The notes: generated by a model from the letters alone, not told the origin. 64,000 bases of DNA from an uncultured Poribacteria bacterium (GCA_951813565.1 OX638351.1:1632001-1696000); one strand, 5' to 3'; counted from the first letter of the stretch, positions 3,048-63,999 are shown. Numbers and translations: made by a program.

Positions 3048-3396
3048 ACGCGAAGTTTTTAAGAATGCTTGGGCAAGGTATATCAATGCAGCCATCTGCA
3101 TTGATAGTGGGTTTTACAATTGATTTTATATTCTCATTTGGCACGGACAAAGTGTTCCACAGTTTTAAAGTCGCGACCTGGAGGCCGCTCCCGACAAATA
3201 CCAAACGCTTATTTGGCGTTGATTCACAGGAAGATACACAATGAATTGCGCGACGACAAACACACCAAATCTATAAAACAATGTAAAGGTAATTTTAGAT
3301 TTCACTATATGTTTATGAATGTGTGTTGATAATTTTTTTTGCGAACAGAGTTTATGGTGTCTCATTGATTCAGTTTTTACTATATGGTCGGATATA

Positions 3397-4404
3397 ATGG
3401 AAACCTATGACATTCTTGCGATTGGTCGGAGTTCCATAGACTTGTACTCTAATGATATAGGGAGTCCGTTTTCTGAAATTACAAGTTTTGGTGCATTCGT
3501 TGGCGGGTGTCCTACTAATATCAGTGTGGGGACACGTCGCCTCGGGCTACGGTCAGTTCTTCTCACAGCGGTTGGTGATGACCCAGTCGGAGAATTTCTA
3601 CTCAAATTTTTGAATGATGAAGGCGTTGAAACGCGTTTCATCGTCAACAAACCGGGGCACCGAACGAGTGCTGTTGTTCTTGGAATTGAGCCGCCTGACC
3701 GATTCCCACTCATCTATTACCGTGATAACTGCGCGGATATTGAACTCACAATTGATGACGTTATTGCGTCACCGATTGCAGAAAGCCGCGCCGTGTTGAT
3801 ATCCGGCACTGGTCTCAGTAAAGAACCGAGTCGTAGTGCTACTCTTTATGCAGCAGAGCAGGCAAAAGTCTTTGACCGAACGGTATTTTTGGATTTGGAT
3901 TTTCGCGCAGACCAATGGCATGACCCGCGTGCTTTCGGTGTGAGTGTCCGGTCTGTCTTGCGTAATGTTGACATCGCTATCGGGACTGAAGAGGAGATTA
4001 AAGCAGCATCCCTGACCGATGTCTCACACATGTCAATAGAACATTCTCAAATCTCAAATCCGAACATTGAAGGGGATATGGAAGCTGCCATCGCAACAAT
4101 TCTAAATACAGGGCCTGAGGCATTAGTAGTGAAGCGCGGCAGTGACGGAGCGGATATCTACTTAAAGCATGGAGAAGTCATTCATGCGCCTCCTTTTCCA
4201 GTTGAAATCTATAACACACTCGGAGCAGGTGATGCGTTTGCCAGCGGTTTTATTTATGGCATACTAAATGGATGGGATTGGCGAAAATCGGCTCGACTTG
4301 GTAATGTGACTGGGGCAATTGTTGTTACACGCCACGGATGCGCAAACTTTATGCCTACGATGGCAGAAGTCAAAACTTTTGTTGAACAACGTGGTGAACT
4401 TTAA
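3397..4404 (+). CDS. iolC: 5-dehydro-2-deoxygluconokinase (PfkB family)
   Basis: GRSSIDLY, GGCPTN, FPLIYYR, DLDFRADQW, GAGDAFASG; adjacent to iolD; start taken at METYDIL. Confidence 0.9.
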   Translation: METYDILAIGRSSIDLYSNDIGSPFSEITSFGAFVGGCPTNISVGTRRLGLRSVLLTAVGDDPVGEFLLKFLNDEGVETRFIVNKPGHRTSAVVLGIEPPDRFPLIYYRDNCADIELTIDDVIASPIAESRAVLISGTGLSKEPSRSATLYAAEQAKVFDRTVFLDLDFRADQWHDPRAFGVSVRSVLRNVDIAIGTEEEIKAASLTDVSHMSIEHSQISNPNIEGDMEAAIATILNTGPEALVVKRGSDGADIYLKHGEVIHAPPFPVEIYNTLGAGDAFASGFIYGILNGWDWRKSARLGNVTGAIVVTRHGCANFMPTMAEVKTFVEQRGEL

Positions 4405-4448
4405 CTCATTCAAATGTTCTGTGGAATATAGAACAGAGGATTTTTAAA

Positions 4449-6317
4449 ATGAAAAATCGAGAATTAACTATGGGGCAAGCCATAGTACAATTTCTTAAGC
4501 AGCAATATGTTGAACGTGATGGAATTGAAAGGGCTTTTTTTGCAGGTATGTTTGGTATCTTTGGACATGGAAACGTGGCAGGGATTGGGCAAGCACTGCA
4601 CCAATACTCCGATGTGTTCCGTTTTTATCAGACGCGCAATGAACAATCTATGGTACATACTGCTGCAGCTTATGCCAAGATGTCTAACCGCCTCAGCACC
4701 TTTGCTTGTACCTCTTCTATCGGGCCGGGGGCAACTAACATGCTCACTGGTGCTGCAGGGGCGACAATTAACCGATTACCTGTGCTATTATTGCCGGGAG
4801 ATATTTTTTCAACGCGTTTAGTCGCACCTGTTTTACAGCAGTTGGAATCTCCCAATTCACAAGACTTTTCGGTCAATGATTGTTTCAAACCGGTTTCTCG
4901 CTACTGGGACCGCATCAACCGTCCTGAGCAGATTATCACTGCACTGCCAGAGGCGATGCGTGTGCTCACTTCACAAGCTGAAACAGGAACCGTGACGTTA
5001 GCCTTACCACAAGATGTCCAAGCGGAAGCATTCCCTTATCCTGAACAACTCTTTGAAAAACGGGTTTATACTATTGCAAGACCTCGTGCAGATGCGCATC
5101 TGCTAAACCGCGCTGTAGAATGGATTTCAAATAGCGAAAGACCATTAATCATTGCAGGCGGCGGTGTTATCTATAGCGAGGCAACTGAACAGTTAGCAAA
5201 ATTTGCTGAGCAAACCGGCATCCCTGTCGGTGAAACCTTTGCAGGTAAAGGTTCATTACGGTATGACCATCCACAAAACCTTGGGGCAATTGGTGCTACT
5301 GGCACACCTGGTGCAAACATCGCTGCGCGTGAAGCAGATTTAGTCATTGCCATTGGAACGCGATTGAGCGACTTCACAACTGCGTCTAAAACCGCTTTTC
5401 AAAATCCGAATGTTCGGTTTATCACTATTAATATTGCGGAGTTTGATGCTGCGAAACACGCAGCCCTACCGTTAGTTGCAGACGCTCGTGTCACACTGTC
5501 TGAATTATCAGATGCTATCGGAACGTATCAAATTAATACTGATTACGCAACACAGATTGAAAATTACCGAGATGCGTGGGAAGAAGAAGTGGAAAGGCTT
5601 TTCCATCTTGATCATCAACCGTTGCCGAGTCAGAGTGAAGTTATCGGAGTTGTTAATGAATTTTCGCGTCCTGAAGATGTCGTTGTCTGTGCTGCGGGAA
5701 GCCTGCCCGGCGATCTCCACAAACTGTGGCGTACGCGTAACCCGAAACAATTCCATCTGGAATACGGCTACTCCTGTATGGGATATGAAATCGCTGGCGG
5801 ATTAGGCATTAAAATGGCTGACCCTACGCGCGACGTCTATGTACTTGTCGGCGATGGCTCATATCTCATGTTAGCACAAGAAATCATCACATCAATTCAG
5901 GAAGGCTATAAGTTTATTATTGTGCTTATCAATAACGATGGACACAGCAGTATTGGCGGATTGTCGCAGGCAACAGGTGCACAAGGTTTTGCTACACGAT
6001 TCCGATACCGTGATGATGACACCGGAGAATTGAAGGGAGATATTTTGCCCGTTGACCTTGCCGCGAATGCAGAGAGTCTTGGTGCTAACGTCATTGAGGC
6101 AACAACGACGCAAAGTTTAAAGGCTGCACTACAGGAAGCGCGAGATAGTGATAGAACAGCCGTCGTCAAAATTGATGTCCATTTTGACGTGCGGGTTCCA
6201 CAGTACGAATCGTGGTGGGATGTGCCTGTGGCAGAAGTTTCAGAGGTAGACTCTGCAAAACAAGCATTTCAAGAGTATAAAGAAGCAAAGCAGAAAGAGC
6301 GATATTTCCTCGGTTAG
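4449..6317 (+). CDS. iolD: 3D-(3,5/4)-trihydroxycyclohexane-1,2-dione acylhydrolase (ThDP-dependent)
   Basis: GIFGHGNVAG, RNEQSM, SSIGPGATN, EYGYSCMGYE, GDGSYLM, WWDVPV. Confidence 0.95.
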   Translation: MKNRELTMGQAIVQFLKQQYVERDGIERAFFAGMFGIFGHGNVAGIGQALHQYSDVFRFYQTRNEQSMVHTAAAYAKMSNRLSTFACTSSIGPGATNMLTGAAGATINRLPVLLLPGDIFSTRLVAPVLQQLESPNSQDFSVNDCFKPVSRYWDRINRPEQIITALPEAMRVLTSQAETGTVTLALPQDVQAEAFPYPEQLFEKRVYTIARPRADAHLLNRAVEWISNSERPLIIAGGGVIYSEATEQLAKFAEQTGIPVGETFAGKGSLRYDHPQNLGAIGATGTPGANIAAREADLVIAIGTRLSDFTTASKTAFQNPNVRFITINIAEFDAAKHAALPLVADARVTLSELSDAIGTYQINTDYATQIENYRDAWEEEVERLFHLDHQPLPSQSEVIGVVNEFSRPEDVVVCAAGSLPGDLHKLWRTRNPKQFHLEYGYSCMGYEIAGGLGIKMADPTRDVYVLVGDGSYLMLAQEIITSIQEGYKFIIVLINNDGHSSIGGLSQATGAQGFATRFRYRDDDTGELKGDILPVDLAANAESLGANVIEATTTQSLKAALQEARDSDRTAVVKIDVHFDVRVPQYESWWDVPVAEVSEVDSAKQAFQEYKEAKQKERYFLG

Positions 6318-6533
6318 GTTTACTTTTGTAATCTATCTCTTTGAATTTGCAGTGTTTGTAGTCGCGCAATTCATTGCGCCTCTTATCTTCTTGTAGGAGC
6401 GAGCTCCAGCTCGCGACTTGTGGTCAAAACTGTAGGAGACTTGGTAAACACACCGAACGACAGTATCCCATTAATTGTAAAATCTACTATAATTATAACT
6501 TAGCCAAAATCTCAACAAGGAGAATCCAACTCT

Positions 6534-7172: not shown

Positions 7173-7575
7173 TACCAAATTAACGGGATTTATCGCATTT
7201 TCCGGACGGTAGGTGCGGTTTCCTAACCGCTCCATAACTGTCAATTTAAGAAAAAAAGCGTTTGTAGTCGTGCAATTCATTGCCAAATCAACGCCAAGCG
7301 CACTTGGGCGAATACGCGTGGTATTCGCCATGACTTGTCGCCTCGGACATTCTGTAGGAGCGAGCTCCAGCTCGCGACCGGGAGGTCGCTCCTACAGAAG
7401 AAAATCGGGGTTGAAAACCCGACAAATGCCAAAAAGCGCATTTGGCGTTGATTTGGCAGCATGCCAAACGCGCATGCTGCGTTGATTCACTCCCACAAGA
7501 GGGTATATCCTTAAATTGACGCATAAGGTACGTTTTCCTAACTGCTCCATAAATATGAATCAAGTTAATGTGGTA
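7173..7575. mobile_element. MITE family A (composite, carries nested elements)
   Basis: TIR TACCAAATTAAC/GTTAATGTGGTA; TAA duplicated at 7170-7172 and 7576-7578; interrupts the LRR gene. Confidence 0.85.
7234..7526. mobile_element. MITE family B nested in MITE A
   Basis: TIR core GTCAATTTAAG/CTTAAATTGAC; flanked by an imperfect 22-bp direct repeat (7212-7233, 7527-7548) that is itself a hairpin. Confidence 0.8.
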
Positions 7576-11800: not shown

Positions 11801-11802
11801 TT

Positions 11803-24867: not shown

Positions 24868-25302
24868 CTTCCGTAGTTAAAATCCGTATCTACCATTTTA
24901 GTTTAGATTCATAAAAAAATCAAGCATTTTTTAAATTTAACATTCCATAAACTAAATTCACATTACCTAATCGGGTGTGCAAATATATTGTCATATAGGT
25001 TCAATTGGCAAAGAATCCTTCGTGTTTTCCACTGGAGGCGAATCAACGCAGCGGGCGCATGCGGTCACGTCTAATGTATCTAAGCAACGGGCGGGCACAG
25101 AGACCCGCCGTTACAATAAGAGATGTACATAACTTTTGACAAAATATTTAGACTTTCCAATTGAAAGATTATTGTTGCATTTCTATGTACATTGTGATAT
25201 ACTATTAAGTAACCGATTTGAAAGTGCCAGAAGCACTTCGCAACAAGGAGGAACTGGCGGACTTAACGCTGTTTTGCGTTTTGAGGAGACCCAGGTATCT
25301 TA

Positions 25303-27799: not shown

Positions 27800-27987
27800 T
27801 AGTAGATTTTACAATTAATGATACACATTGATCGGCGCGCTTGCAAAGCGCGCCTACTTGTGATATAAGAGGCGACGAATGCCATACGCGCATGAGGCGT
27901 TGATTTGGCAATAAATTCGCGACTACAAACGCTGTAAATCCAAAGAAAATGTTCCGGTATTTTAGGTTTTACCAAAATTTTCTGCTA
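27800..27987. repeat. MITE with IS630-like end carrying REPs and a micro-hairpin
   Basis: TA|TAGTAGATTTTACAATTAATG; the same end appears inverted at ~6469-6490; right end approximate. Confidence 0.6.
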
Positions 27988-45616: not shown

Positions 45617-45826
45617 ATAAATCAACGCAGCATGCGCGTATGGCATGCTGCGGGTGTAAACTTAAGAAAAAAATGCTGGATTTTCTCTTGTGGGAGGGAG
45701 ACCTTGTCCGACCGATTTTCGAGATTCAACCAAGTAAATCCGGGTTGAAAACCCGACAAATACCATACGCGTATTTGGCGTTGATTCACTCCCACAAGAA
45801 GATATATCCTTAGAGTTGACACGTAT
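45617..45826. mobile_element. MITE family B with two micro-hairpin inserts
   Basis: 20-bp direct repeats 45597-45616 and 45827-45846 (3 mismatches); ends GTGTAAACTTAAG / GTTGACACGTAT. Confidence 0.78.
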
Positions 45827-47089: not shown

Positions 47090-47376
47090 TACCAAATTAA
47101 CCTAATCTGTAGCGCGAGGTCTCTGTGCCTCGCAATATTGACTTGCCCAAGAAACACCTAATCAAGTTAATTTGGTATAATACCAAATTAACCTAATACC
47201 ATTTCTAATTGACAAAATGTCATAATATATTGTAGGTCGGGTAGAGGAACGAAACCCGCCAAGTGCCAAATGTGCACTTGGCGTTGATTTGGACAGGACG
47301 CTATAAAAAGTCGGGTTTCGCTACCGCTTCTACCCGACCTACGAAATAATGCCACATAATCATTTAGAAATGGTAT
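47090..47376. mobile_element. MITE stack: 88-bp family A (47090-47177), truncated A end, family C-ended unit (47197-47376)
   Basis: TACCAAATTAAC/GTTAATTTGGTA; TACCATTTCTAA/TTAGAAATGGTA; units separated by TAA/TTA; internal inverted REP pair. Confidence 0.8.
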
Positions 47377-47534: not shown

Positions 47535-47623
47535 TTGACAAAAAACATGAAATGTTGTATGATAACTAAAAATGTAAAATTACTTATAAAGTGATTGACA
47601 TTTTTGGTAAAGTTATGTATACT
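47535..47623 (+). promoter_or_regulatory. Tandem sigma70 promoters
   Basis: TTGACA-N17-TATGAT (47535-47563) and TTGACA-N17-TATACT (47595-47623). Confidence 0.75.
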
Positions 47624-47634
47624 TTACAAGAAGG

Positions 47635-50614: not shown

Positions 50615-51643
50615 GTGAAAAGACACAAAGTTGTTATGTTGTGCCTGTTACTGCTACTGCTTGCGTCTACCTTAGTCCATACCAAAATCGTTTTTAATTC
50701 AGTACGCGATGGTATTTATGGGATCTACGTGATGGATGATGATGGCAGCAACCAGACACTGCTTACCGACGCGTTCCGTCCCCGCTTACCGAGTTGGTCT
50801 CCCGACGGCAGACAGATTTTATTTCGAAGATTTGTGCATGGTAGTGCTATTCTTTGCTTGATGAATCCAGACAGCACAAACATTCGTCAACTCACAAAAG
50901 CTGATTATATCGATAGAGCTTCATTTTCACCGGACGGCAAATTTCTCGTTTTTAGGAGAACGATTGAGGATCCCGGTGATTGGAAAAACCGCACCGTCGT
51001 CCTCAATATAGAAACGGGAAAGATGAAAGAGATCTCGGATTTCTGGGGTGTCCAACATGATTGGTCGCCGGATGGCAAGCATATAATATGTGCGGAACCT
51101 TGGACGCACGGTGTCAATAATACGATTTGGATTATGGCAGCGGATGGTCACAACCTACGCCCACTGATACCCACAGCGGCTTTCGACGGAGAGTTCATGA
51201 TTCACCGTAAATATCCGCGCTGGTCGCCGGATAGTCAACAGATTGTGTTCACCCAGGTAGAGTGGAAAACCGTGCGTCAGATGAATGCCCGGGAAGGCCC
51301 TTTCTACAAGGCGTTTCGGTATATGATCTGTAATCGCAACGGAGAAAACCTCAGAGTGCTCCCTATACCGAAGGGCATGCAAGGGTTTAGCGTTGACTGG
51401 ATGGATGACGGTGAATCCATCGTTTTTAGTGCGCGTGCTGACATCCCTTTGAACCAACCGCTACCGGGTGATTTTGAGTTTCCACCACCGAATATCTATA
51501 AGTATCATATCCGGACACGCGATATGACACGGCTCACAAACCATCCGGGCCGTGATTACGGGTTGGACTGGATCAGTGATGATGTGCTTTCTGTAACACC
51601 ACAAGGCAAAAAAAAAATAACGTGGGGGGCAATTAAGGAGTAA
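50615..51643 (+). CDS. Secreted TolB-like (PD40) beta-propeller protein
   Basis: Signal peptide, KIVFNSVRDG, repeated WSPDG motifs, tail LSVTPQGKKKITWGAIKE. Confidence 0.88.
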   Translation: MKRHKVVMLCLLLLLLASTLVHTKIVFNSVRDGIYGIYVMDDDGSNQTLLTDAFRPRLPSWSPDGRQILFRRFVHGSAILCLMNPDSTNIRQLTKADYIDRASFSPDGKFLVFRRTIEDPGDWKNRTVVLNIETGKMKEISDFWGVQHDWSPDGKHIICAEPWTHGVNNTIWIMAADGHNLRPLIPTAAFDGEFMIHRKYPRWSPDSQQIVFTQVEWKTVRQMNAREGPFYKAFRYMICNRNGENLRVLPIPKGMQGFSVDWMDDGESIVFSARADIPLNQPLPGDFEFPPPNIYKYHIRTRDMTRLTNHPGRDYGLDWISDDVLSVTPQGKKKITWGAIKE

Positions 51644-51669
51644 GTCGTCTGCTGTAACATCATATTTTG

Positions 51670-51714
51670 GACAGGCAGGTCCCCTTTTTTATGGGGACCT
51701 GCCTGTCTCTTTTT
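51670..51714 (+). terminator. Intrinsic terminator
   Basis: GACAGGCAGGTCCCC / GGGGACCTGCCTGTC followed by TCTTTTT. Confidence 0.85.
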
Positions 51715-51720
51715 AAGTTA

Positions 51721-52028
51721 TACCGAATTAACAGGATTTATTTGTTTTATTGGAGACAGGCAGCATACACCAAATCAACGGTATGAATCATGCAGCATGC
51801 CGGACGCGCATGCTACCAATGGCATTCCCCATGTTCCACAAATGCACAAACTGTATGAAGATTAATTTATTAATTCGGTAATTTTCTATCCGTACGAGGC
51901 AAGTGTACTCCTCCGCTGGCGAGGTTTCCTAACCTCGCCAAATTACCGAAATATTTTCTTAATCTTCATACAGTTTGTGCTACAATGTGTTTTTATCAAA
52001 CTCACGTTGTCAATTAAGCTATACGGTA
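51721..52028. mobile_element. Composite family A MITE with nested element (51854-51970)
   Basis: TTA|TACCGAATTAACAGGATTTAT matches the 7173 copy; nested unit has TATGAAGATTAA/TTAATCTTCATA ends; right end approximate. Confidence 0.65.
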
Positions 52029-52049
52029 TACGCAGTCCAGTTATGGACA

Positions 52050-53603: not shown

Positions 53604-53694
53604 GGTTGTGTCCTCCAAATGGGTTACCTGTCTGTCATTAGAAGGGATGATATACCCCTTTACAATGGAATTAGTAAAATCCTACTTTGCCGTT

Positions 53695-54711
53695 TTATAT
53701 TTCACGTCCAACAGCGATAGCGATCGGTTTTAGTTCTTGAATGAGTGCCTCAAATTGATCAGGAAACAGAGACTGTGCACCATCACCTGTCATTGAATTA
53801 TCAGGATCATGATGAACTTCAAGTAACAGTCCATCTGCTCCAGCTGCGACGGATGCTTTTGTCATATCGCTCACCAAGTTACGGATACCGGTTCCATGGC
53901 TCGGATCAACAACGATAGGCAAATGGCTTAATTCGTGAACAACAGGAACAGCGTTAAGGTCCAATGTGTTACGCGTGTGGGTTTCGAAGGTGCGGATGCC
54001 TCGCTCACATAGAATAACATCCGGATTCCCTTCAGAAAGTATGTATTCTGCAGCAAGCAACCACTCTTCAATCGTCGAAGCCATTCCACGCTTCAGAATA
54101 ACAGGTTTGCGGGCACGACCAACTTCACGCAACAGATAGAAGTTTGTCATATTCCGTGTGCCGAGTTGAAATATGTCCGTATGTTCACCAACAAGTTCAA
54201 CTTCGTTGGGAGTCATCACTTCTGTTACGATGCCCAAACCCGTTTCCTCTTTGGCTGCGACAAGCATTTTCAATGCATCTGCTCCAAAACCTTGGAAACT
54301 ATAAGGACCTGTGCGAGGTTTAAATGCGCCACCTCTAATAAAACCGGCTCCCGCTTTCTTCACCTGTTTTGCAATAGTTACAATCTGTTCGGTACTCTCA
54401 ACCGCACAAGGACCCGCCATAACCGCTAACTTCCGTCCCCCAATTTTCGTCCCGTTTGTGGAGATAACAGTCGGTTCATCCCGAAATTGGCGGCTTGCTA
54501 ATTTATATGGGGCAGTGATCGGCATCGTCCTTTCAACGCCAGACATTGACTCCATCGGAATATCGCCAAGCAATGTTTTATCTCCTATTACACCGATGAC
54601 GGTGCGTTGTTCGCCAGTTGAAATCTGTGCTTTCAACCCTACACTCTCAATCCGTTTGACAATTGCGTCAATCTGATTAGGTGTTGCATCCGTTTTGGTA
54701 ACGATTACCAT
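53695..54711 (-). CDS. aroF: DAHP synthase type I-beta with N-terminal regulatory domain
   Basis: MAGPCAVES, RGGAFKPRT, KRG, CERGIRTFE, DPSHGTG; GGAGG RBS before MVIVTK. Confidence 0.93.
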   Translation of the reverse strand: MVIVTKTDATPNQIDAIVKRIESVGLKAQISTGEQRTVIGVIGDKTLLGDIPMESMSGVERTMPITAPYKLASRQFRDEPTVISTNGTKIGGRKLAVMAGPCAVESTEQIVTIAKQVKKAGAGFIRGGAFKPRTGPYSFQGFGADALKMLVAAKEETGLGIVTEVMTPNEVELVGEHTDIFQLGTRNMTNFYLLREVGRARKPVILKRGMASTIEEWLLAAEYILSEGNPDVILCERGIRTFETHTRNTLDLNAVPVVHELSHLPIVVDPSHGTGIRNLVSDMTKASVAAGADGLLLEVHHDPDNSMTGDGAQSLFPDQFEALIQELKPIAIAVGREI

Positions 54712-54766
54712 GGTTTGAATTCCCTCCGACACATAACTCTGTTTCAAGTCAATGTTGATGATTAGT

Positions 54767-54806
54767 AAAAAAATAACCCAACATCGAATTATTCTCGACA
54801 CTGGGT
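54767..54806 (-). terminator. Attenuator terminator upstream of aroF-leuA
   Basis: Minus strand ACCCAGTGTCGAG-AATAA-TTCGATGTTGGGT followed by TATTTTTTT. Confidence 0.75.
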
Positions 54807-54856
54807 AGTGATGTATAAGATTCAATTAAAACTTTTTCATGAGTGCTTACAAACTA

Positions 54857-55006
54857 TCACCACCTACCGCCGCAGTACAAAAACGGGTACAACCCGAGCG
54901 TAAAGAGTGCCCAAAGATCAAAAATATTTCCCCGTAAAAATGATAGAGCGGACCGTGTTCCACTTGCCAGTACTGTAGAGATGGTAGAGCGTTCAAACTT
55001 CTGCAT
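54857..55006 (-). CDS. Putative leader peptide rich in Leu/Phe/Tyr/Trp (49 aa)
   Basis: MQKFERSTISTVLASGTRSALSFLRGNIFDLWALFTLGLYPFLYCGGRW*; AGGGA upstream; its 3' end can pair with the terminator 5' flank. Confidence 0.65.
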   Translation of the reverse strand: MQKFERSTISTVLASGTRSALSFLRGNIFDLWALFTLGLYPFLYCGGRW

Positions 55007-55108
55007 CACAAAAGATCCCTAATTTCTTTGGTTGTAAGCCTTTCCTATTTTCTTGCCTTATAATACGTTATTCCAAACAAAACGTTTAATGTAAGACTAC
55101 TTTTTAAT

Positions 55109-55138
55109 ATGGTAACACATTTCATAAGGTTATGTCAA
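55109..55138 (-). promoter_or_regulatory. Sigma70-type promoter of the aroF-leuA leader
   Basis: TTGACA-N18-TACCAT on the minus strand. Confidence 0.6.
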
Positions 55139-55156
55139 GTTTTTATGATAGTATTG

Positions 55157-55258
55157 CAGGGTTATTTAGTTTTCGGGTTTTCTGCTATATTTTTTCACAT
55201 TTCTAAATAAACTATTAGTAACACGCATCAACCGGTAATTCATAAACTAAATAGCCTG
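55157..55258. mobile_element. MITE family D, second copy
   Basis: CAGGGTTATTTAGTTT / AAACTAAATAGCCTG; no clear TSD. Confidence 0.65.
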
Positions 55259-55437
55259 CTCTATAAAACGGGTGTGTAAAGTTTTTGTAGAAATCCGCCC
55301 TACAGTGGAAAACGCCGCGTAATCATTGTAAATTGAACCTATGTAACCAAATATTTACAAACCCTATAAAACTGATTCCTTGCATTAAAAAGGAATTTTT
55401 ATTATGATATGCATATCCCGAATGAAGGAGAAAACGA

Positions 55438-56943
55438 ATGAGCCTATTGGGCATTGATGTTGGTACAACAGGATGTAAAGTTATAGCATTTCGCGAGGAT
55501 GGTGAAACTCTTGCACAAGCGTATGGCGAATATCCGTTGATACACCCGCAACCCGGTTGGTCAGAACTGGATTCAAATGTTGTCTGGGAAAATGTTTCCA
55601 ACGGAATTCGCAAGGTTGCGGCACAAACAAAAACAGATCCGATTGAAGCAATTAGCGTGGCATCACAAGGCGAAGCCGTGACGCCCGTTTGGGGTAACTG
55701 TGATGTGCTTGCAAACGCTATTACTACCTTTGATTCTCGCACCACAGGAATCTGCGAAGAAATCCTGCAAGAAATTACACCTTTAGAAGTGATGCAAATC
55801 ACTGGTATGCCACCGAGTAATATCCACACACTTGCGAAACTGGTATGGATACAGCGGAATCAACCAGAAATTTATAAAGAGGTGTGGAAATTTTTCGGCT
55901 TTGAAGATTTCGTCAATTTCAGGTTGGGCGTGCAACCTGCGGTAGACTATTCTCTGGCAGCGCGTACGATGTGCTTTGACATTATCAACAAATGCTGGTC
56001 CGAAAAAATGCTCAGTTTGGCGAATGTTGACGTGTCAATCTTGCCCGATACAGTTCCGTCAGGCACTATCATCGGCGAAATTGGTGCTAAGGTTTCAGGT
56101 GAACTCGGTCTTCCCAAAGGCGTAGTTGTTGTTGCAGGCGGGCACGACCAACCTTGTGGGGCGTTGGGTGCAGGAATTATTCGCGGTGGCGAACTTATGG
56201 ACGCAACTGGCACTGTGGAATGTATTGCCCCTGCTTTTAGCGAACCTGTTATCAACCAACAGATGATAGATGGGAATTTTGCATGCTATCCGCATGTCGT
56301 TGAAGGGCTATATGTCACATTGGGATTTGTTTCAAGCGGTGGTGTTGTGCTACGCTGGTTTCGGGATACCTTAGCACAAGCAGAAGTAACACAAGCATCT
56401 GCAGAGGGACGCGATGTCTACGATATCCTCCTTGAAGATATATCCGATTCCCCCGGAACAGCCATGCTCCTTCCGCACTTTACCGGTTCTGGAACCCCAC
56501 ATCTTGACTTGGAATCGAAGGGCGCAATCGTTGGATTGACACTTTCTACAAGCAAAAGTGAACTTGTTAAGGCGATACTTGAAGGTATTAGTTATGAAAT
56601 AAAACAGAATCTTGCGATGCTGCAAGATGCCGGTGTTGTCATAAACGAGGTCCGTGCCATCGGCGGCGGCGCAAAATCGGAAAAATGGTTGCAACTCAAA
56701 GCGGATATGTTCGGTAAAAAGGTCATCGCACTTGACATTTCCGAAGGTGTCTGTCTTGGGACTGCTATCCTTGCAGGAACGGCAATAGGTAAGTATAGTG
56801 GAATTGAAGAGGCGGTTGACCTATTAGTCAAACCACAAAAGGTTTACTATCCGCGTGAGGAAATAGCCCAACAGTACGATGAGAAGTTGAAAGTTTATGA
56901 GCAGATTTACCCTACTTTGCGTGAGTTGAACGATCAATTATAA
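55438..56943 (+). CDS. FGGY-family carbohydrate kinase (xylulokinase-like)
   Basis: LGIDVGTTGCK, GGHDQ, LPHFTGSGTP, AILEG, GGGAKS. Confidence 0.9.
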   Translation: MSLLGIDVGTTGCKVIAFREDGETLAQAYGEYPLIHPQPGWSELDSNVVWENVSNGIRKVAAQTKTDPIEAISVASQGEAVTPVWGNCDVLANAITTFDSRTTGICEEILQEITPLEVMQITGMPPSNIHTLAKLVWIQRNQPEIYKEVWKFFGFEDFVNFRLGVQPAVDYSLAARTMCFDIINKCWSEKMLSLANVDVSILPDTVPSGTIIGEIGAKVSGELGLPKGVVVVAGGHDQPCGALGAGIIRGGELMDATGTVECIAPAFSEPVINQQMIDGNFACYPHVVEGLYVTLGFVSSGGVVLRWFRDTLAQAEVTQASAEGRDVYDILLEDISDSPGTAMLLPHFTGSGTPHLDLESKGAIVGLTLSTSKSELVKAILEGISYEIKQNLAMLQDAGVVINEVRAIGGGAKSEKWLQLKADMFGKKVIALDISEGVCLGTAILAGTAIGKYSGIEEAVDLLVKPQKVYYPREEIAQQYDEKLKVYEQIYPTLRELNDQL

Positions 56944-56991
56944 ATTGGTAATTACGGATAGCGCGTGGGTTGGGTAGAGTTTATGAAACCC

Positions 56992-57201
56992 ATAAGCGTC
57001 AACTTAAGGAAAAAATGTTGGGTTTCCTCTTGTGGGAGGGCTTTCTAAGCCCGATTTTGTGAGACCCAAGCCGTTAAATCGGGGTTGAAAACCCGCAGCA
57101 TGCCAAACGCGCATGCTGCGTTGATTTGGACAAATGCCAAAAAGCGCATTTGGCATTGATTCACTCCCACAAGAAAGATTGGACGCTAAATTGACACCTA
57201 T
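56992..57201. mobile_element. MITE family B with tandem micro-hairpins
   Basis: Perfect 20-bp direct repeat GGGTAGAGTTTATGAAACCC at 56972-56991 and 57202-57221; ends ATAAGCGTCAACTTAAG / CTAAATTGACACCTAT. Confidence 0.88.
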
Positions 57202-57457
57202 GGGTAGAGTTTATGAAACCCGACAATGGCTATCAGCAATCGACTTTCAGCCATCAGCGGTAGGTGCGTTCCATCCTTGGTAGTCGCGCTTTGATGAAGA
57301 TTAAGAAAATATTTCGGTAATTCTAATTTTTCCGTCTTGTTCTTATGTGGATTTCAAACACACCATGAATATAAGAGGCGCAATGAATTGCGCGACTACA
57401 AACGCCGCTAATCTGAAGAAAATGTTAAGATATTTTTAGATTTACTATAATGCCACT

Positions 57458-58411
57458 ATGAAAAAACATGTCGCAGGAATAGACATTGGCGGTACAAAAC
57501 TCGCAACCGTCGTTGCGGATAATTCTGGCAAGATTCTTAGCAAAGTCCGCAGACCGACATTTGCTGATAAGGGGCCTGAATATGCTATCCAACTTCTATT
57601 TGAGATGGTGGACGAAACTATCACCAAGGCAAATCTCAAGCAGGAAGCAATTTCAGGGATTGGTGTGAGTTGTGGTGGTCCATTGGATACAAAAACAGGG
57701 ATCGTTTATTCTCCTCCGAATTTGCCTGGTTGGGATGCATTTCCACTTAAAACGCGTCTTGAAACGGAGTTTCAGATACCCGCTACGATTGAAAATGATG
57801 CCAACGCCTCAGCACTCGCCGAATACCGGTTTGGAGGTGGCAGAGGCTATAATACTGTCCTTTACATGACGATGAGCACTGGAATTGGTGGCGGAATTGT
57901 TATAAATGGACAGATATTCCACGGTGCCAACGACAGCGCAGGCGAAGTCGGTCATCAGATTCTTTTGCCCAATGGTCCGCTATGTGGGTGTGGTAAGCAC
58001 GGGTGTTTGGAGGCTATCTGCTCAGGTCCAGCTATTGCACGTCGTGCTAAGGAAGCAATTCAAAAACAGTCAAACACTACAATACTTGCTCTTGCAGATG
58101 GACATATAGAGACGGTAAAATCAGAACATGTACTTGCAGCAGCACGGCAAGGTGACGCGTTGGCACTTAAGTTGATTGACGAAACAGCATATTACATGGG
58201 ATGGGGCATCGCAAATTTGGTCAATATTTTGAATCCGGACATTGTTCTACTGGGAACAATTGCTATCGCCGCTGGAGACCTTTTACTTCAACCGATTCGA
58301 AAAACTGTATCAGACTTTGCAATGGCACGTCCTGCCGAAGCAGTCAAGATAATGCCTGCACAGTTGGGTGAATCACTGGGAGACCTCGCTACCATTGCAT
58401 TGGTAGTATGA
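57458..58411 (+). CDS. ROK-family sugar kinase
   Basis: GIDIGGTK, ENDANA, STGIGGG, GEVGH, CGCGKHGCLE. Confidence 0.92.
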   Translation: MKKHVAGIDIGGTKLATVVADNSGKILSKVRRPTFADKGPEYAIQLLFEMVDETITKANLKQEAISGIGVSCGGPLDTKTGIVYSPPNLPGWDAFPLKTRLETEFQIPATIENDANASALAEYRFGGGRGYNTVLYMTMSTGIGGGIVINGQIFHGANDSAGEVGHQILLPNGPLCGCGKHGCLEAICSGPAIARRAKEAIQKQSNTTILALADGHIETVKSEHVLAAARQGDALALKLIDETAYYMGWGIANLVNILNPDIVLLGTIAIAAGDLLLQPIRKTVSDFAMARPAEAVKIMPAQLGESLGDLATIALVV

Positions 58412-58439
58412 TGTTCCATTCAAATATGGAGAAAACTTG

Positions 58440-59003
58440 ATGGAGAGAATCAAAAAATACATTTCGCATCTACAAGGCGCTTTAGAACGCTTAAAACTGG
58501 AAGATGTACGGCGTTCTATAGATGTAATCATGGGTGCCTATCATGCCGACAAACAAATTTTCGTTATCGGCAACGGCGGCAGTGCGTCTACTGCATCCCA
58601 CCTCGCCTGTGATTTGGGTAAAGGTACAAGCATTGCAGGTAAACCTCGGTTCCGCGTAATTAGTTTAACTGATAACGTGGCGACGATGACAGCATGGTCA
58701 AATGACGTTGCTTACGAAGATGTCTTTGTAGAACAACTCAGAAATCTCGTGAATCCAGAGGATGTCGTGATAGGTATCAGTGCAAGTGGCAATTCAGAGA
58801 ACGTTATCCGTGCGATGCAGCACGCCGTAGACATAGGCTGTCAAACCATCGGATGGAGCGGATTTGGTGGCGGAAGATTGGTAACAATTTGTGATGTCAA
58901 CGTTGTTGTTGATAGTGACCAGTATGGTCCGGTTGAAGATGTGCATCTTATTTTAAACCACGTCCTACACGCTTGGATTAAGGAGGAATTTTCAGCATTA
59001 TAA
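58440..59003 (+). CDS. SIS-domain phosphosugar isomerase (GmhA-like)
   Basis: GNGGSASTASH, TAWSND, ISASGNSENV, VEDVH. Confidence 0.88.
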   Translation: MERIKKYISHLQGALERLKLEDVRRSIDVIMGAYHADKQIFVIGNGGSASTASHLACDLGKGTSIAGKPRFRVISLTDNVATMTAWSNDVAYEDVFVEQLRNLVNPEDVVIGISASGNSENVIRAMQHAVDIGCQTIGWSGFGGGRLVTICDVNVVVDSDQYGPVEDVHLILNHVLHAWIKEEFSAL

Positions 59004-59158
59004 AACGAGTGTAAATATTTTGCCATTAACCATGTGATCTTTCTTGTTGAAAGGATTTGTAATCCCGATTTATCGGGGTTGAAAACCCTCCTACAAGAGA
59101 GGAGAAATACCCATGCCAAAAATTTTACACACCCTGTTCACCTCATAAAACACATTTC

Positions 59159-59188
59159 TTGACATACTAACCGCTTTTAAGGTATACT
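59159..59188 (+). promoter_or_regulatory. Sigma70 promoter of the nfeD/floA operon
   Basis: TTGACA-N18-TATACT. Confidence 0.6.
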
Positions 59189-59265
59189 TATAGCAAGACT
59201 TTACTATCCACTAATCAGCAAAATATATTTAAGGGCATTTTTAATTAAACAGGAGTGATAGGAAG

Positions 59266-60807
59266 ATGAAAAGCCAAAAAAATCTGCTATATTGCTCGCT
59301 TCTCTTAATCGGGTGCCTTCTCATGAGAGGTGGAGTGTCCGCTGAGGACAACGCTTTAGTTTATGTCATAGATATCCGCACAGAAATCGGAGGCGGCGTA
59401 AGTACCTACATTAATAAAGGTATTACAAAGGCAGAAGATGTAAATGCTGATGCTATTATTTTTGATGTTGATACCCCCGGTGGGAAAGTTGATTCTGCTA
59501 TAAAAATTATCAGAGCAATCCAAGAAACACAAATACCGACTATTGCTTTCGTCAACCGACAAGCTATCTCCGCTGGTGCCATGATTTCTGCTGCATGTGA
59601 TCAGATTGTTATGACATCAGGCGCAACGATTGGCGATTCTGCCCCCGTAGATGCACAAGGTAATGAAGCTGGTGAGAAAATCGTCACCTATATCCGAGGC
59701 ACTATTCGCTCCACTGCTGAACGACAAGGTCGAAATCCTGATATCGCTGAGGCTATGGTGGACAAAAGGCTTATTCTTGTACGTTTAGAAAATGGCGATA
59801 TAATTAAATTACGGCCTGAAGAGTACTTTAATGAACAAGATGCTGCCACGCGGATGCAAGTGCTTTGCGCAGAGGGAGAACTTCTCACCTTAACGACCCG
59901 TCAAGCCCTTGAATACGGTTTTGTTGATACGCAAGCAGAAAACCTATCCGAACTGCTTGCTCAATACCAAATTGTTGAAATTGATGAGAATTACAGAGAC
60001 GATGAAAATGATGTTGTAATGATCGCTCTCACTGAAGACGGTATCTTAGGCAGGCAAGAAGAACTCGGTACCGATAAAGTTACCCCCATTAAATCGCTGG
60101 CAAACGCTCAAGTTACTAAATTTGTAGTGACACTTGCAGACCGCACAGTCTTTTTTATTACTAGCCCCTACATCAGCGCGCTTTTGCTTTCTTTAGGCGG
60201 CCTCGGTTTAATCGTTGAGATTCGGACACCAGGTTTTGGCATTCCTGGATTTCTTGGATTGCTTTTCATCGGTCTTTTCTTCGGTGGACACATGCTAAAC
60301 CAAGTCCCGAATGCGTATATTGTTGCATTAATCTTTGTAGTCGGATTGGCATTAATTATATTAGAGGTTTTTGTGATTCCAGGTTTTGGGGTCGCTGGGA
60401 TTTTGGGTATAATTTTGATGTTGGCAAGTGTTTTTTACACGTTTTTCCAAAGTACTGACGATTTCAGTATTGCACTATTATGGCTCTCTATTTCAGTGAT
60501 TCTTACTTCCGTGTTGGCAATTCTTGCTACTATTTTTCTTCCTAAATCGGCACCATTTCAGCACCTTGCATTGTCCACAGTGATGAGTGCTGAACAAGGT
60601 TACCACTCAGCTGGCAGTCAGGATTTTGAGGTTTTTCTCGGTAAAACAGGTGTAGCATTAACTCCCTTACGCCCAGCGGGAACAGCCAGAATTGATAACA
60701 AGCGATTGGATGTTATCACAGTTGGTGACTTCATCGCACAAAACACACCTGTTAAAGTATTAGAAGTTGAAGGTTCCAAAATTTTGGTTGAAGCTATTGA
60801 GCAATGA
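59266..60807 (+). CDS. nfeD: Long NfeD (ClpP-like protease domain, TM domain, OB fold)
   Basis: VDTPGG, AISAGAMI, AEAMVD, TPGFGIPG, TPLRPAG. Confidence 0.9.
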   Translation: MKSQKNLLYCSLLLIGCLLMRGGVSAEDNALVYVIDIRTEIGGGVSTYINKGITKAEDVNADAIIFDVDTPGGKVDSAIKIIRAIQETQIPTIAFVNRQAISAGAMISAACDQIVMTSGATIGDSAPVDAQGNEAGEKIVTYIRGTIRSTAERQGRNPDIAEAMVDKRLILVRLENGDIIKLRPEEYFNEQDAATRMQVLCAEGELLTLTTRQALEYGFVDTQAENLSELLAQYQIVEIDENYRDDENDVVMIALTEDGILGRQEELGTDKVTPIKSLANAQVTKFVVTLADRTVFFITSPYISALLLSLGGLGLIVEIRTPGFGIPGFLGLLFIGLFFGGHMLNQVPNAYIVALIFVVGLALIILEVFVIPGFGVAGILGIILMLASVFYTFFQSTDDFSIALLWLSISVILTSVLAILATIFLPKSAPFQHLALSTVMSAEQGYHSAGSQDFEVFLGKTGVALTPLRPAGTARIDNKRLDVITVGDFIAQNTPVKVLEVEGSKILVEAIEQ

Positions 60808-60828
60808 AAATTCTAAAGTTCTAACTAT

Positions 60829-61326
60829 GTGGAGGAAATATCAATGTTATGGGTTCCAACTATTCTCATTGCCCTTGGAATATTATTAGTTTTTGTTGAG
60901 ATTTTGATTCTTCCGGGGTTTGGTGCAGCGGGTGTTCCGGGAATAATTTTACTCATTGTCGGATTCTGGATGATTTGGTCAAAATCGGGGGTCACGACGG
61001 CACTCATTTATGCGAGTGTCGCGCTAATTTTCGTGATACCTATAGCGATTTTTGGTCTATCACTTATCCGTGAATCACCTATAGGAAAAACCTTTATCCT
61101 TAGTGCTGCCCAAAGAAGTGAGGAAGGTTTTCAAGCAGCACCTGAAGAGTTAACTGCACTTGTCGGAAAATCAGGAAAATCTGTAACCCCGCTTCGTCCC
61201 GCAGGGGTTGCGCTAATCAACGGTCAACGTGTTGATATCGTTACGCAGGGAGAATTTGTAGAGTCAGAAACAGAGATAGAAGTTATTCAAGTAGAAGGTA
61301 GCCGTGTTGTCGTCCGTAGTTTATAA
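60829..61326 (+). CDS. Short NfeD-family protein
   Basis: EILILPGFG TMs; TPLRPAG, C-terminal OB fold. Confidence 0.85.
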   Translation: MEEISMLWVPTILIALGILLVFVEILILPGFGAAGVPGIILLIVGFWMIWSKSGVTTALIYASVALIFVIPIAIFGLSLIRESPIGKTFILSAAQRSEEGFQAAPEELTALVGKSGKSVTPLRPAGVALINGQRVDIVTQGEFVESETEIEVIQVEGSRVVVRSL

Positions 61327-61393
61327 AAATTGTGAAATTGACATTATTATTTTATGAATCAACGAACTCTAATTTAAAGAGAGGAAATTTGAT

Positions 61394-62314
61394 ATGGGAG
61401 AGTTTTCAGTAGGAGTCCCGATATTAGCGGTAATTGTTCTCATCGTTATTTTTATGTTCTTCTGGTTCGTCCCAGTTGGGCTCTGGATTGCTGCTGTTGC
61501 AGCCGGTGCCCCATTGCGCATTTCTGAACTCATTGGAATGCGACTGAGACGAGTTAATCCAAATGTCATTGTTAGAGCACTTATCAGTAGCCACAAAGCT
61601 GGGTTGACAGTGGCAACGTCTGATTTAGAGGCACACTATCTTGCTGGAGGTAACGTTCTTAATGTTGTCAGTGCGCTTATTGCGGCAGATAAAGCGAGAA
61701 ATATTAACCTTGATTTCACGCAAGCAGCTGCAATTGATTTAGCAGGTAGAGATGTGTTTGAGGCGGTTCAAATCAGCGTTAACCCGCGCGTCATAACTAC
61801 TTCCAGAATCAGCGCGCTTGCACTTGATGGCGTTGAACTGATTGCCACCGTCAAAATCACTGTGCGTACTTTTATCAATCGCCTTGTCGGTGGTGCTGGT
61901 GAAGAAACCATCATTGCACGTGTCGGTGAGGGCATCATCAGTGCGATCGGTGCATCTGAAACTTACGAAGATGTGCTTGAAAATCCAGATATTATCTCAA
62001 AAACTGTTCTGGATCGTGGGCTTGATGCAGGTACCGCTTTTGAAATCCTGTCTATTGATATTGCAGACGTGAACGTTGGGAAAAATATAGGTGCAGAACT
62101 TCAAGCGGAACAAGCAGAGGCTGACCTTGTTGTTGCACAGGCAAAGGCGGAAGAACGCCGCGCACTCGCTGTTGCAAGGAAACAGGAGATGACTGCAGGT
62201 GTTCAGGAACAGCGCGCAAAGGTTGTGGAAGCAGAAGCTACTGTGCCTCGCGCACTCGCCAGTGCCTTTCGTGAAGGCAATTTAGATATTTCACCTCAGA
62301 GAGAAGGAGAATAA
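61394..62314 (+). CDS. floA: Flotillin-like protein FloA/YqfA (paralog 1)
   Basis: [46 protein letters not shown]. Confidence 0.92.
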
Positions 62315-62315
62315 A

Positions 62316-63341
62316 ATGGTTTTTGTTGCAATTATTGCTGTTTGTATTCTGCTATTTTTAATCGTTGTTGGATGGTTCGTTCCACTTGGATTGTGGATTA
62401 CTGCAATTGCAGCGGGAGTTAAAGTCGGTATTTTTGACCTCGTAGCGATGCGTTTACGTCGTGTGCCACCCAACCAAATTGTTGAACCACAAATTAACGC
62501 AACTAAGGCAGGGTTAAGTCTTTCGCTTGATGATCTTGAGGCACATCTCCTCGCGGGTGGACGTGTAGGAAGTGTTGTTGCTGCACTCATCGCCGCAGAT
62601 AAAGCGAACATTGACCTTGAATTCGCACAAGCCGCCGCTATTGATTTAGCAGGTAGGGATGTCTTACAAGCTGTACAGGTCAGTGTTACACCAGAAATTA
62701 TTGATATTCCAAGCCAAGAGGATCCAAACAGCGGCATTACTGCGGTTGCGCGCGATGGAATCCAACTCATTGTCAAAGCACGCGTCACCGTTAGAGCAAA
62801 CATTGATCGCCTCGTCGGTGGTGCTACCGAAGATACCATACGTGCAAGGGTCGGCGAAGGTATTATCACAACGATCGGGTCTTCCGGGAACCATAAACAA
62901 GTTTTGGAAAACCCAGTACGAATCTCTGAAACAGTGCTTGAAAAAGGGCTTGAGGCTGGAACCGCCTTTGAAATTTTGTCTATTGATATCGCTGACATCA
63001 ATGTTGGTGAGAACGTTGGGGCAAAATTACAAACCGATCAGGCACAAGCTGAGCTTAAGATAGCACGCGCAAAAGCGGAAGAGCAACGCGCACGTGCAGA
63101 AGCGGAAGAAGAAGAAAATAAGGCACTTGTTGAAGAAATGACAGTGAAATTGATTGCAGCGGAAGCTGAAATTCCGCTTTCTATCTCAGATGCATTTAAT
63201 TCAACAAGGATGAGTGTGATGGATTATTACACGCTTCGCAATATCCTTGCAGATACTGAAATGCGTCAATCCATCGCCTCACCAGGTGGTCCTGAAGACG
63301 GAGACACAACCCGATCTTCTCATTCCTTGGGGCTCTCATAA
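62316..63341 (+). CDS. floA: Flotillin-like protein FloA/YqfA (paralog 2)
   Basis: Same motifs plus the C-terminal VMDYY..RNI.ADTEMR. Confidence 0.92.
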
Positions 63342-63363
63342 ATAACTTCTAAAGGAGAAACTG

Positions 63364-63840
63364 ATGGGATTTGATCTGGAAGCACTAATTCCTATAATTA
63401 TCTTTCTACTTATAATGATATTTGGAGGAATGCGCCGTCGGAAAACTGACCAACGCCCAGCTGAAAACAACCAAAGTCAAACTGAAAACATGAGTGAGGT
63501 TGATACGGCTCAAGAAAGTGAAACTGTATTTCCGCCATTTATGGAAAATTTTGAGGGTTTTCCCTCTGAACCAGAAATGGTGGAGGAAACTGTGGAAAAC
63601 ACCGAAGCGGATATGCCAATGGTTGCGGCGCAATCTGAACCAGAACCCGTTCAAGAACCAGCACCTGAAAGAAAACCTATAGAACCGCCACCGATCCCAG
63701 TGGATTCTCGGACTCCGCTGCCAACGAAACCGTTACCTATAACTTCTCTGATTGATCCGTCTCCCGAAACATTTCGTCAAGGTATCATTCTTGCTGAAAT
63801 CCTCGGGAAACCTAAGACACTGCGAATGAGGAGAAGGTAA
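63364..63840 (+). CDS. Membrane-anchored Pro/Glu-rich protein (YqfB-like position)
   Basis: N-terminal TM; C-terminal RQGIILAEILGKPK. Confidence 0.7.
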   Translation: MGFDLEALIPIIIFLLIMIFGGMRRRKTDQRPAENNQSQTENMSEVDTAQESETVFPPFMENFEGFPSEPEMVEETVENTEADMPMVAAQSEPEPVQEPAPERKPIEPPPIPVDSRTPLPTKPLPITSLIDPSPETFRQGIILAEILGKPKTLRMRRR

Positions 63841-63867
63841 ACATATAGAAACGCAAAACAGTTCTTA

Positions 63868-63999
63868 TACCATTTCTAATTGATCGCCTTTCATTAACAA
63901 AAAACGCGTTTGTAGTCGCGCAATTCATTGCCAAATCAACGCCAAATGCGCGTTTGGCATTTGGCGCCTCGGACATTCTTCAACTCAGCTTGAACCGAT
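63868..63999. mobile_element. MITE family C (runs off the window) with micro-hairpin insert
   Basis: TTA|TACCATTTCTAATTGA; homologous to the 30887 copy plus 34 extra bp. Confidence 0.75.

Follow-up and report, generated by a model that had tools for sequence, protein, structure and literature searches.

The 64,000-nucleotide stretch analyzed here (the window; GCA_951813565.1, OX638351.1:1632001-1696000) comes from an uncultured Poribacteria bacterium and carries multiple copies of a short unit, in which a hairpin of 7-9 bp is followed by the invariant unpaired tag GCGTTGATT and 1-2 further bases, for a total length of 33-35 nt. Sites that are otherwise identical either hold whole units or lack them entirely. 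The unit is likely to be independently mobile, which would apparently place it among the smallest mobile DNAs. The reading that we prefer, with a probability of roughly 45%, is that the unit is an orphan insertion element of its genus, similar to repetitive extragenic palindromic (REP) sequences, and that it is moved as single-stranded DNA by a Y1 transposase of the HUH type acting in trans. Taken on its own, the assignment of this movement to a Y1 enzyme is slightly more tentative than that. An earlier note on the window had named nine loci with such an element, and the unit was found at all nine, as six singles of 34 nt, two dimers of 69 nt and a compound unit on the minus strand at 7284-7339.

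The source genome is a single contig of 5.43 Mb with a G+C content of 43%. Its cumulative GC skew wanders, with no replication-related trend and no clear origin or terminus. Exact copies of GCGTTGATT numbered 742 in the whole genome, compared with about 44 expected from base composition. The window contained 11 exact copies, and 33 copies when one mismatch was allowed, against 20.6 ± 4.5 in shuffled sequences (0 of 100 shuffles reached 33). A strict 20-base pattern of the unit matched the genome 286 times and the reversed control pattern 0 times. With a fuzzy pattern, the genome-wide collection suggested in the earlier note yielded 541 units (263 and 278 on the two strands), of which 511 fell outside predicted open reading frames (ORFs). 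Orientation relative to the flanking genes was weakly biased (185 co-oriented versus 148 opposed), which argues against a terminator or RNA stabilizer, a reading that we rejected. The viral contigs searched for the unit gave no match.

The consensus of the unit, 3' of (A)CCC, reads G C/A - CAAATGC - C-loop-GC - GCATTTG - G C GTTGATT - T/C G/A. On the opposite strand the tag reads AATCAACGC, giving the arrangement 5'-AATCAACGC-hairpin. The inner stem ATGC/GCAT, with which the stem ends, and the tag were nearly invariant, the loop measured 7-8 nt, and the 3' end varied among TG, CA, CG and CT. The three outer stem pairs varied with compensation (CG/UA/AU, AU/GC and AU/CG). Because the loop length varies, covariation was counted on an alignment of units (106 distinct units, of which 103 came from other genomes). 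In this alignment 93.1% of the stem cells paired, and shifting the stem partners by 1-3 columns reduced pairing to 18-49%. Changes on both sides of the stem occurred in 75 cells compared with 21.5 ± 3.5 after shuffling (0 of 500 shuffles as high), a count to be read with the facts that the retrieval pattern fixed the inner pairs and that the sequences belong to related subfamilies. The claim that the stem changes in compensation while the tail stays fixed was thus borne out. DNA folding gave the expected hairpin in 6 of 8 window units, with energies between -6.4 and -10.7 kcal/mol; the two exceptions, at 3193 and 27874, are degenerate.

In a second type of unit (type II), the stem is GGGGAATGCC/GGCATTC and the tail is ACCGTTGATT, at times followed by repeated TCTTGATT. 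Such tails (for example at G000:C1 502298 and 691333, and in L176-L188 of genome G023) preceded 1-3 tandem octamers TCTTGATT, which looks like stuttering at the tag. Hairpins without a tail were also found, nested in unit loops. The idea that these tail-less hairpins (63 of 408) are the left ends of a larger element was rejected; they were mostly nested or compound forms. Pairing between loop and tail (AACGC with GCGTT) was possible in about half of the units and was not counted as structure, because the loop position varies (C 0.50, A 0.38) whereas the tail never does.

To define the junctions, the flanks of unit arrays were aligned with other places in the genome. For 201 of 321 arrays, the joined flanks matched another place across the junction, that is, an empty-like paralog. 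Among 132 good pairs of filled and empty sites, the size difference with single units was 34 nt in 33 pairs, 35 nt in 24, and 33 and 32 nt in 19 each; dimers differed by 69 nt (15 pairs) or 68 nt (4 pairs), and trimers by 102-104 nt. The position of the junction was ambiguous by 0 nt in 47 of the 132 pairs, 1 nt in 33, 2 nt in 27, 3 nt in 10 and more in 15, so that 117 pairs lay within 0-3 nt, with a mode of 0 nt. Because this shift is variable among pairs, there is no constant target duplication of the fixed-length kind that flanks classical miniature inverted-repeat transposable elements (MITEs). Two examples given in the earlier note stood up. The MITE at 30887 is empty where its homolog at 63868 is filled, the difference near 30948 being precisely the 34 nt of 63932-63965. 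Units fill the GGGGTTGAAAACCC repeat at 7421, 45755 and 57095, whereas its copy at 59074-59094 has none.

After removal of related flanks, 44 independent left contexts remained. Position -1 was C in 89% of them, positions -2 and -3 were C in 61% each, and position -4 was A in 57%; CCC preceded the unit in 25 of 44 contexts and GGC in 6 of 44. The junction therefore lay directly 3' of a C, usually as ACCC^ or GGC^ (^, junction), at the end of a C-rich helix arm on the strand of the unit. These counts, together with the modal ambiguity of 0 nt, agreed with the proposal in the earlier note that insertion follows CCC or GAGGC without duplication.

Most insertions fell in GTAG-type REPs, where both feet, the loop and the arms were used, or in loops of other units. 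The GGGGTTGAAAACCC repeat (REP-C) reads GTAGGAG-GGGTTTTCAACCCC on the opposite strand, and the GCAATGAATTGCGCGACTAC repeat (REP-D) reads GTAGTCGCGCAATTCATTGC; REP-A is GTAGGAGCGAGCTCCAGCTCGCGAC, and the hairpin of REP-B is GCGAGGTTAGGAAACCTCGC. Plain proximity of units to intact GTAG REPs was not enriched (32 of 396 versus about 31 expected). Because an inserted unit destroys the REP, this test was replaced by in silico deletion of the arrays, which restored a REP with GT[AG]G plus hairpin across the junction for 129 of 321 arrays. Random intergenic deletions of 34 nt restored on average 6.7 and at most 11 of 321, approximately 20-fold below the arrays. In the 129 restored REPs, junctions in the tag or between it and the near foot of the hairpin were on the opposite strand in 83 cases and on the same strand in 3; a further 21 lay at the far foot, 17 in the far arm of REP-D and 5 in loops. 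Of the REP-C copies, 144 were empty and 80 filled with 1-6 units, and 86 of 294 REP-D copies had the tail directly upstream (filled), whereas 208 did not. At this one REP-D site, the filling units represented no fewer than seven stem subtypes and, in addition, compound and nested forms.

Units were also nested within one another, the loop of one unit holding a second at a fixed offset of 48-49 nt. A CAAATGC unit carried a CGAGTGC-stem unit in inverted orientation in its loop, and an AGCATGC unit carried one of type II. The 458 units whose stems had 7 bp or more were arranged as 330 singles, 45 pairs, 9 triplets and 7 arrays of greater length (maximum 9 units). Of 146 neighboring pairs no more than 60 nt apart, 112 were direct (head-to-tail) and 34 inverted. 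Arrays alternated two unit types with a period of 69 nt. After insertion, units multiply locally into such head-to-tail arrays and travel with their host REPs and MITEs. No autonomous parent emerged from a search of the 4 kb upstream of each right arm that had no left arm close by. This search returned short fixed offsets (48-49, 83-85, 107-109, 133-134 nt and similar) that derive from nesting and composite repeats, and about 10 long distances compared with about 8 expected by chance according to our own estimate. In the genome, 51 ORFs of at least 100 aa were located between neighboring units.

The array structure bears on whether the unit is mobile in its own right. It could instead be a module of composite repeats that rides on REPs and MITEs, with slippage, unequal exchange and gene conversion mimicking insertions. 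Alternation of two unit types with a 69-nt period is what slippage is expected to produce, most copies lie in multi-copy composites with identical flanks, the filled REP-C copies form one sub-lineage (74 of 80 with CTCCCACA), and the units of genome G023 lie inside one larger composite. Exactly identical units, however, stood in many unrelated contexts (33 copies of one in 9 contexts, 21 copies of another in 10), and the unit is therefore not a fixed part of one larger element, which the earlier note had named among the outcomes that would refute its reading. The 44 unrelated left contexts, the insertions in four REP classes at differing positions and in the loops of other units, and the filling of a single REP-D site by at least seven stem subtypes likewise speak against a mere module, and we regard this explanation as improbable.

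In a collection of species genomes the pattern of the unit was found in at least 115 stretches, and 79 of the 80 listed belonged to Candidatus Poribacteria metagenome-assembled genomes (MAGs), the remaining one being labeled "uncultured bacterium". The strict pattern was present in 36 of 40 genomes of the genus (Candidatus Poribacteria), at 0-286 copies each (the highest counts being 286, 227, 160, 126, 89, 88 and 77), and in 0 of 16 genomes from three other families of the same order. Among species whose genes are only 74-86% identical, as are the coding flanks of the unit at 3193, the unit sequence was near-identical. At loci around the gene downstream of this unit, 12 of 13 relatives lacked a unit and one (G006) held two different units; in G002 the two matched flanking genes were 83 nt apart compared with about 270 nt at the 3193 locus. 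Individual repeats are thus lineage-specific, and the unit sequence is conserved through the genus.

Such conservation could mean that the unit is kept mainly for use by the host, as a protein binding site or as a structural signal in RNA or DNA, and that its spread is secondary. The near invariance of the tag and inner stem among these species, the location of 511 of 541 units outside predicted ORFs and the persistence of the unit in genomes without Y1 genes (see below) are in keeping with this idea. On the other hand, 4 of the 40 genomes had no strict-pattern copy and the number varied from 0 to 286, the bias in gene orientation was weak, and units lay inside other selfish repeats and not at fixed places beside genes. 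Furthermore, the locus orthologous to the 3193 intergenic region was without a unit in 12 of 13 relatives and differently filled in the other, and no Rfam family matched the 64-kb window at the gathering score. A host function as the main reason for retention therefore appears the least probable of the explanations considered.

As described above, the unit combines a hairpin conserved only as structure with an adjacent invariant unpaired tag, which is the layout read by HUH Y1 enzymes, and insertion 3' of a short motif without duplication fits such enzymes as well. In the mechanism that we propose, the unit would move as single-stranded DNA, and a Y1 enzyme acting in trans would recognize the folded hairpin and tag as 5'-AATCAACGC-hairpin on the opposite strand, a layout paralleling the GTAG-hairpin of REPs. 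The enzyme would then cut and rejoin at short C-ending sites exposed at hairpins. REP-associated tyrosine transposases (RAYTs) are reported to act on single-stranded DNA, cutting it at a dinucleotide on each side (5' and 3') of the REP stem-loop, and this dinucleotide is reported to be chosen by pairing with the tag, a GTGG tag redirecting cutting to CC (PMC8266576). In the present genome, the GTGG form of the REP-C tag occurred in 74 of 80 filled copies compared with 46 of 144 empty copies. This excess, with units following CC(C), points to RAYT cutting, but as a lead only: most insertions are on the strand opposite the REP tag, and the separation of tag and hairpin could itself free the tag to mutate.

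Ten Y1_Tnp matches were found in the source genome, namely five IS200/IS605 tnpA genes, one IS200-like gene of 166 aa, a fragment of another such gene and three RAYT-type genes, one of these with a stop codon. Two RAYTs appeared intact: Y9 scored 132.5 bits and Y7 116 bits on NF047646 (the NCBIfam model for REP-associated tyrosine transposase; cut-off, 80), and by inspection both translations kept the HUH motif and the tyrosine. These two would be the prime suspects for moving the unit. The third, Y8 (L010, about 1425-1970, minus strand; G000:C1:3549545-3550027), contains an in-frame TAG, lies between REP-A and an empty REP-C, and is probably a pseudogene. Y9 is immediately followed downstream (L009:1913-2232; G000:C1, about 242501-242820) by about seven REP-A copies in tandem, with a period of about 35-55 nt. 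REP arrays in relatives were far larger, with more than 40 GTAGGAG in 1.5 kb in L151. The IS200/IS605 element with tnpA and tnpB (G000:C1, for example 228254-230011) is about 1.73 kb long and has 4 full copies. About 25 copies of 1.25 kb match only the part of this element beyond tnpA and a left end of about 110 nt; they insert after TT and end in CCTATGAC. Genome G009 had 20 Y1_Tnp matches, mostly split IS200-type genes sharing the same TAG, which suggests a burst of a frame-broken IS200 copy.

Several observations weigh against a Y1 enzyme as the mover. The earlier note had suggested looking for a Y1 or RAYT gene flanked by the same hairpin and tail, and this search came back empty: units bracketed none of the 10 Y1_Tnp loci of the source genome, whether of RAYT or IS200 type, and no Y1 gene had a unit at its ends among 18 loci of relatives. 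The RAYT genes Y9, Y8 and Y7 had GTAG REPs at their flanks instead (classes A, C and B), the resident IS200/IS605 copies had unrelated end hairpins of their own and inserted after TT, and the Y5-type gene carried its own repeat class. In relatives, 9 of 10 RAYT loci were flanked by GTAGGAG repeats with units nearby in only 4 of 10, and only 1 of 8 Y5-type loci had a unit, about 1.3 kb from the gene. Four genomes without a Y1_Tnp match (E≤1e-5) carried units (G023, 16; G045, 13; G010, 10; G024, 4); a fifth genome without a match, G001, had none. The G023 units, in a genome of one contig, belonged to a lineage-specific subtype spread chromosome-wide inside a larger composite repeat. Genome G055, with 126 units, had only weak matches to the RAYT query (E 1e-12), G002 (160 units) and G012 (89 units) lacked the Y5 type, and no Y1 family tracked unit copy number over the 40 genomes of the genus. 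In addition, the varied 3' ends and the varied insertion points in REPs are looser than the known ends of IS200/IS605.

The proposal in the earlier note of an HUH/Y1 substrate acted on in trans thus held in part. Gain and loss of whole units, the C-ending target, the preference for REPs at about 20 times chance and the nesting are in accord with it, and the lack of a bracketed Y1 gene, the lack of a Y1 family that tracks copy number and the units in four Y1-free genomes are not. A Y1 enzyme as the mover is therefore a matter of inference. The high-copy genomes except G055 (286, 227, 160, 89, 88 and 77 copies) all had a strong RAYT-family match, that of G048 being a fragment carrying stop codons; because the genomes of the genus are kin and many are fragmented MAGs, this pattern is a tendency and not a test.

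The same observations leave room for a mobile unit that is moved by another route, either an unrecognized recombinase or host replication and repair, for example copy-choice between extruded hairpins that pastes a hairpin plus tag into single-stranded sites. Units in Y1_Tnp-free genomes, among them the dispersed subtype of G023, the absence of Y1 genes bracketed by units and the failure of any Y1 family to follow copy number, with G055, G002 and G012 as examples, speak for such a route. The tail-less nested hairpins indicate that the moved piece is not constant, and REPs with a CGTC tag offer a precedent of palindromic repeats for which no dedicated transposase is described (PMC3733652). Against such a route, no candidate enzyme other than Y1 was found, in a search aimed at Y1 only, the conserved unpaired tag with a structure-only hairpin is the signature of an HUH substrate, the top copy numbers besides G055 coincide with a strong RAYT-family match (with the G048 fragment among them), and template switching leaves identical 34-mers at unrelated sites unexplained. 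A route of this kind seems to us unlikely, though better placed than the other alternatives.

A bolder formulation, which we hold rather unlikely, is that the unit is a self-sufficient minimal substrate of hairpin and 9-nt tag, cut and rejoined without any dedicated transposase gene. Either a resident REP-processing Y1 enzyme would be hijacked through a non-GTAG tag, in which case one selfish repeat would parasitize the machinery and sites of another, or a housekeeping activity of replication or repair would move the unit, and DNA would then be mobile by a route of a new kind. If this minimal substrate were real, the hundreds of filled and empty pairs would form the first natural map of REP cutting in vivo.

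The features of the window are listed in the Table. A covariance model, trained mainly on units of other genomes (3 window units were in the training set), gave 16 matches in the window at E≤1. Eight were full length with 50-62 bits, and the remainder were second members of dimers, the compound unit and weak remnants. The decayed remnant, the type II unit and the GTAG-type identity of the host REPs had gone unnoticed in the earlier note. The CTCCCACAAGAGG that ends the REP-C at 7407-7502 is the displaced, mutated GTAG tag of this REP in reverse complement.

Table. Units, host REPs and empty sites in the window. Positions are counted from the first letter of the stretch; ^ marks the junction.
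Position	Strand	Feature	Remarks
3193..3226	+	Single unit with partly decayed stem, after ...GCTCCC in a REP-A-type repeat	34 nt, 55.5 bits
7264..7344	-	REP-D (GTAGTCGTGCAATTCATTG...GCCTC) interrupted by a compound unit (7284-7339)	Second, tail-less hairpin in the unit loop
7354..7395	.	Intact inverted pair of REP-A (GTAGGAGCGAGCTCCAGCTCGCGAC type)	REP class that also flanks RAYT Y9
7407..7502	+	REP-C hairpin GGGGTTGAAAACCC, two units (7421-7454, 7455-7489), then CTCCCACAAGAGG	69-nt head-to-tail dimer
25036..25062 (about)	-	Decayed unit remnant, tail intact, hairpin collapsed	Motif and covariance model
27874..27907	+	Single unit with mismatched stem, after GAGGC of REP-D	34 nt, 50.5 bits
30930..30951	+	Empty REP-D site, junction between 30947 and 30948	Paralogous site at 63932 is filled
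45618..45651	-	Single unit of AGCATGC stem type, after ACACCC	34 nt, fold and covariance model
45741..45800	+	REP-C hairpin, one unit (45755-45788, 34 nt), then CTCCCACAAG	Covariance model
47258..47291	+	Single unit with compensated stem GCCAAGTGC/GCACTTGGC, after AAACCC	34 nt, fold z -4.5
51768..51830 (about)	-	Type II unit (stem GGGGAATGCC..., tail ACCGTTGATT) with tail-less AGCATGC hairpin in the loop	Covariance model
57081..57175	+	REP-C hairpin, two units (57095-57128, 57129-57163), then CTCCCACAAG	69-nt head-to-tail dimer
57378..57399	-	Empty REP-D (GAGGC^GCAATGAATTGCGCGACTAC)	Sequence
59074..59094	-	Empty REP-C, tag intact (GGGGTTGAAAACCC^TCCTACA)	Sequence
63932..63965	-	Single unit inside REP-D; the paralogous site at 30948 is empty	34 nt

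Contigs from four public runs that aligned to 45000-64000 all ended at repeats (for example 45622/45781, 57055/57385 and 63892). The units interrupt short-read assemblies at each copy. A multi-copy insertion sequence of 1.68 kb lies at 48657-50338 (5 genome copies with 99.6-99.9% identity); it encodes a 476-aa ORF at 48889-50319, and its depth was raised in all four runs. In three runs, contigs of a related strain joined 46976 to 52047 via about 145 other bases, so that about 5 kb (46977-52046), including the unit at 47258, this insertion sequence and the type II unit at 51768, are absent or replaced.

For the movement of REP-type repeats in cells, the published evidence consists of RAYT cutting in vitro and of population inference. 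The filled and empty sites described here, most of them inside GTAG REPs, define the junctions to 1-3 nt, the target rule (ACCC^ or GGC^) and the tag. They would serve as a natural record of where REPs open, and as testable substrates for the RAYTs of Poribacteria. They also display layered parasitism among bacterial repeats, in which REPs and other units host the unit and MITEs host REPs, in an uncultured phylum of sponge symbionts. Searches of the literature returned only primer matches for the motif of the unit and, for REP, RAYT and REPIN, no paper on REPs in Poribacteria in the library searched.

Compared with known systems, the unit is closest in form to GTAG REPs and their doublets (REPINs), which are associated with RAYTs. 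As described by Bertels and Rainey (2011; PMC3116915), Di Nocera et al. (2013; PMC3733652) and Corneloup et al. (2021; PMC8266576), these are intergenic palindromes of 20-40 nt in hundreds of copies, lineage-specific, with an unpaired conserved tag at one end and a stem kept as structure, and they are processed as single-stranded DNA. The unit is likewise a short, high-copy, intergenic, imperfect palindrome (about 541 copies, with covariation in the hairpin), and genuine GTAG REPs and RAYT genes coexist with it in the source genome. Unlike GTAG REPs, however, it has the tag GCGTTGATT (AATCAACGC on the opposite strand) 3' of the stem and no GTAG in its consensus, has no REPtron of its own, the RAYT genes not being flanked by units, and is itself located inside GTAG REPs. 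Its pairs are mostly direct (112 versus 34 inverted) and not inverted as in REPINs; head-to-tail dimers are described as rare in REP families (PMC3733652).

The CGTC-tagged REPs are a second parallel, as tagged palindromes for which PMC3733652 reports no dedicated transposase gene, its authors suggesting a lost enzyme or mobilization by several transposases. These elements, described there mainly in alpha-Proteobacteria, have a terminal CGTC (or TGTC/CCTC) tag, an 8-9 bp stem starting with A-T pairs and a loop of 4-5 nt. The present unit differs in its GCGTTGATT tag, its loop of 7-8 nt and its stem end ATGC/GCAT. Nesting inside other REPs is not known to us for CGTC-tagged REPs; REPs inside palindromes, also reported in PMC3733652, are a further parallel.

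Integron attC, dif and IHF sites were considered as relatives and set aside: the tail fits GTTRRRY at only 6 of 7 positions, and the unit is too short and has no paired inverse core. The small dispersed repeats (SDRs) of Nostocaceae, described in 2008 by Elhai and colleagues, are reportedly repeats of about 21-27 nt with clean insertions inside other repeats and genes, and no enzyme is known for them. These cyanobacterial repeats have no known sequence relation to the unit and differ from it in length and layout (a hairpin plus a 9-nt tag in the unit).

Classical MITEs, with terminal inverted repeats and a DDE transposase, are set apart by the fixed-length target-site duplication that the unit lacks. 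IS200/IS605 elements and their miniature derivatives resemble the unit in their insertion 3' of a short sequence without target duplication, in the hairpin near the end, in a cut site about 10 nt 3' of the hairpin and in a single-strand lifestyle. They differ in having distinct left and right ends where the unit has one hairpin, and the ends of the unit are unrelated to those of the resident copies (end hairpin CCCCTGCCTTTAGGTAGGGG, insertion after TT). In its behavior the unit resembles REPs and miniature IS200/IS605 elements, yet it departs from both in the very features by which their members are recognized.

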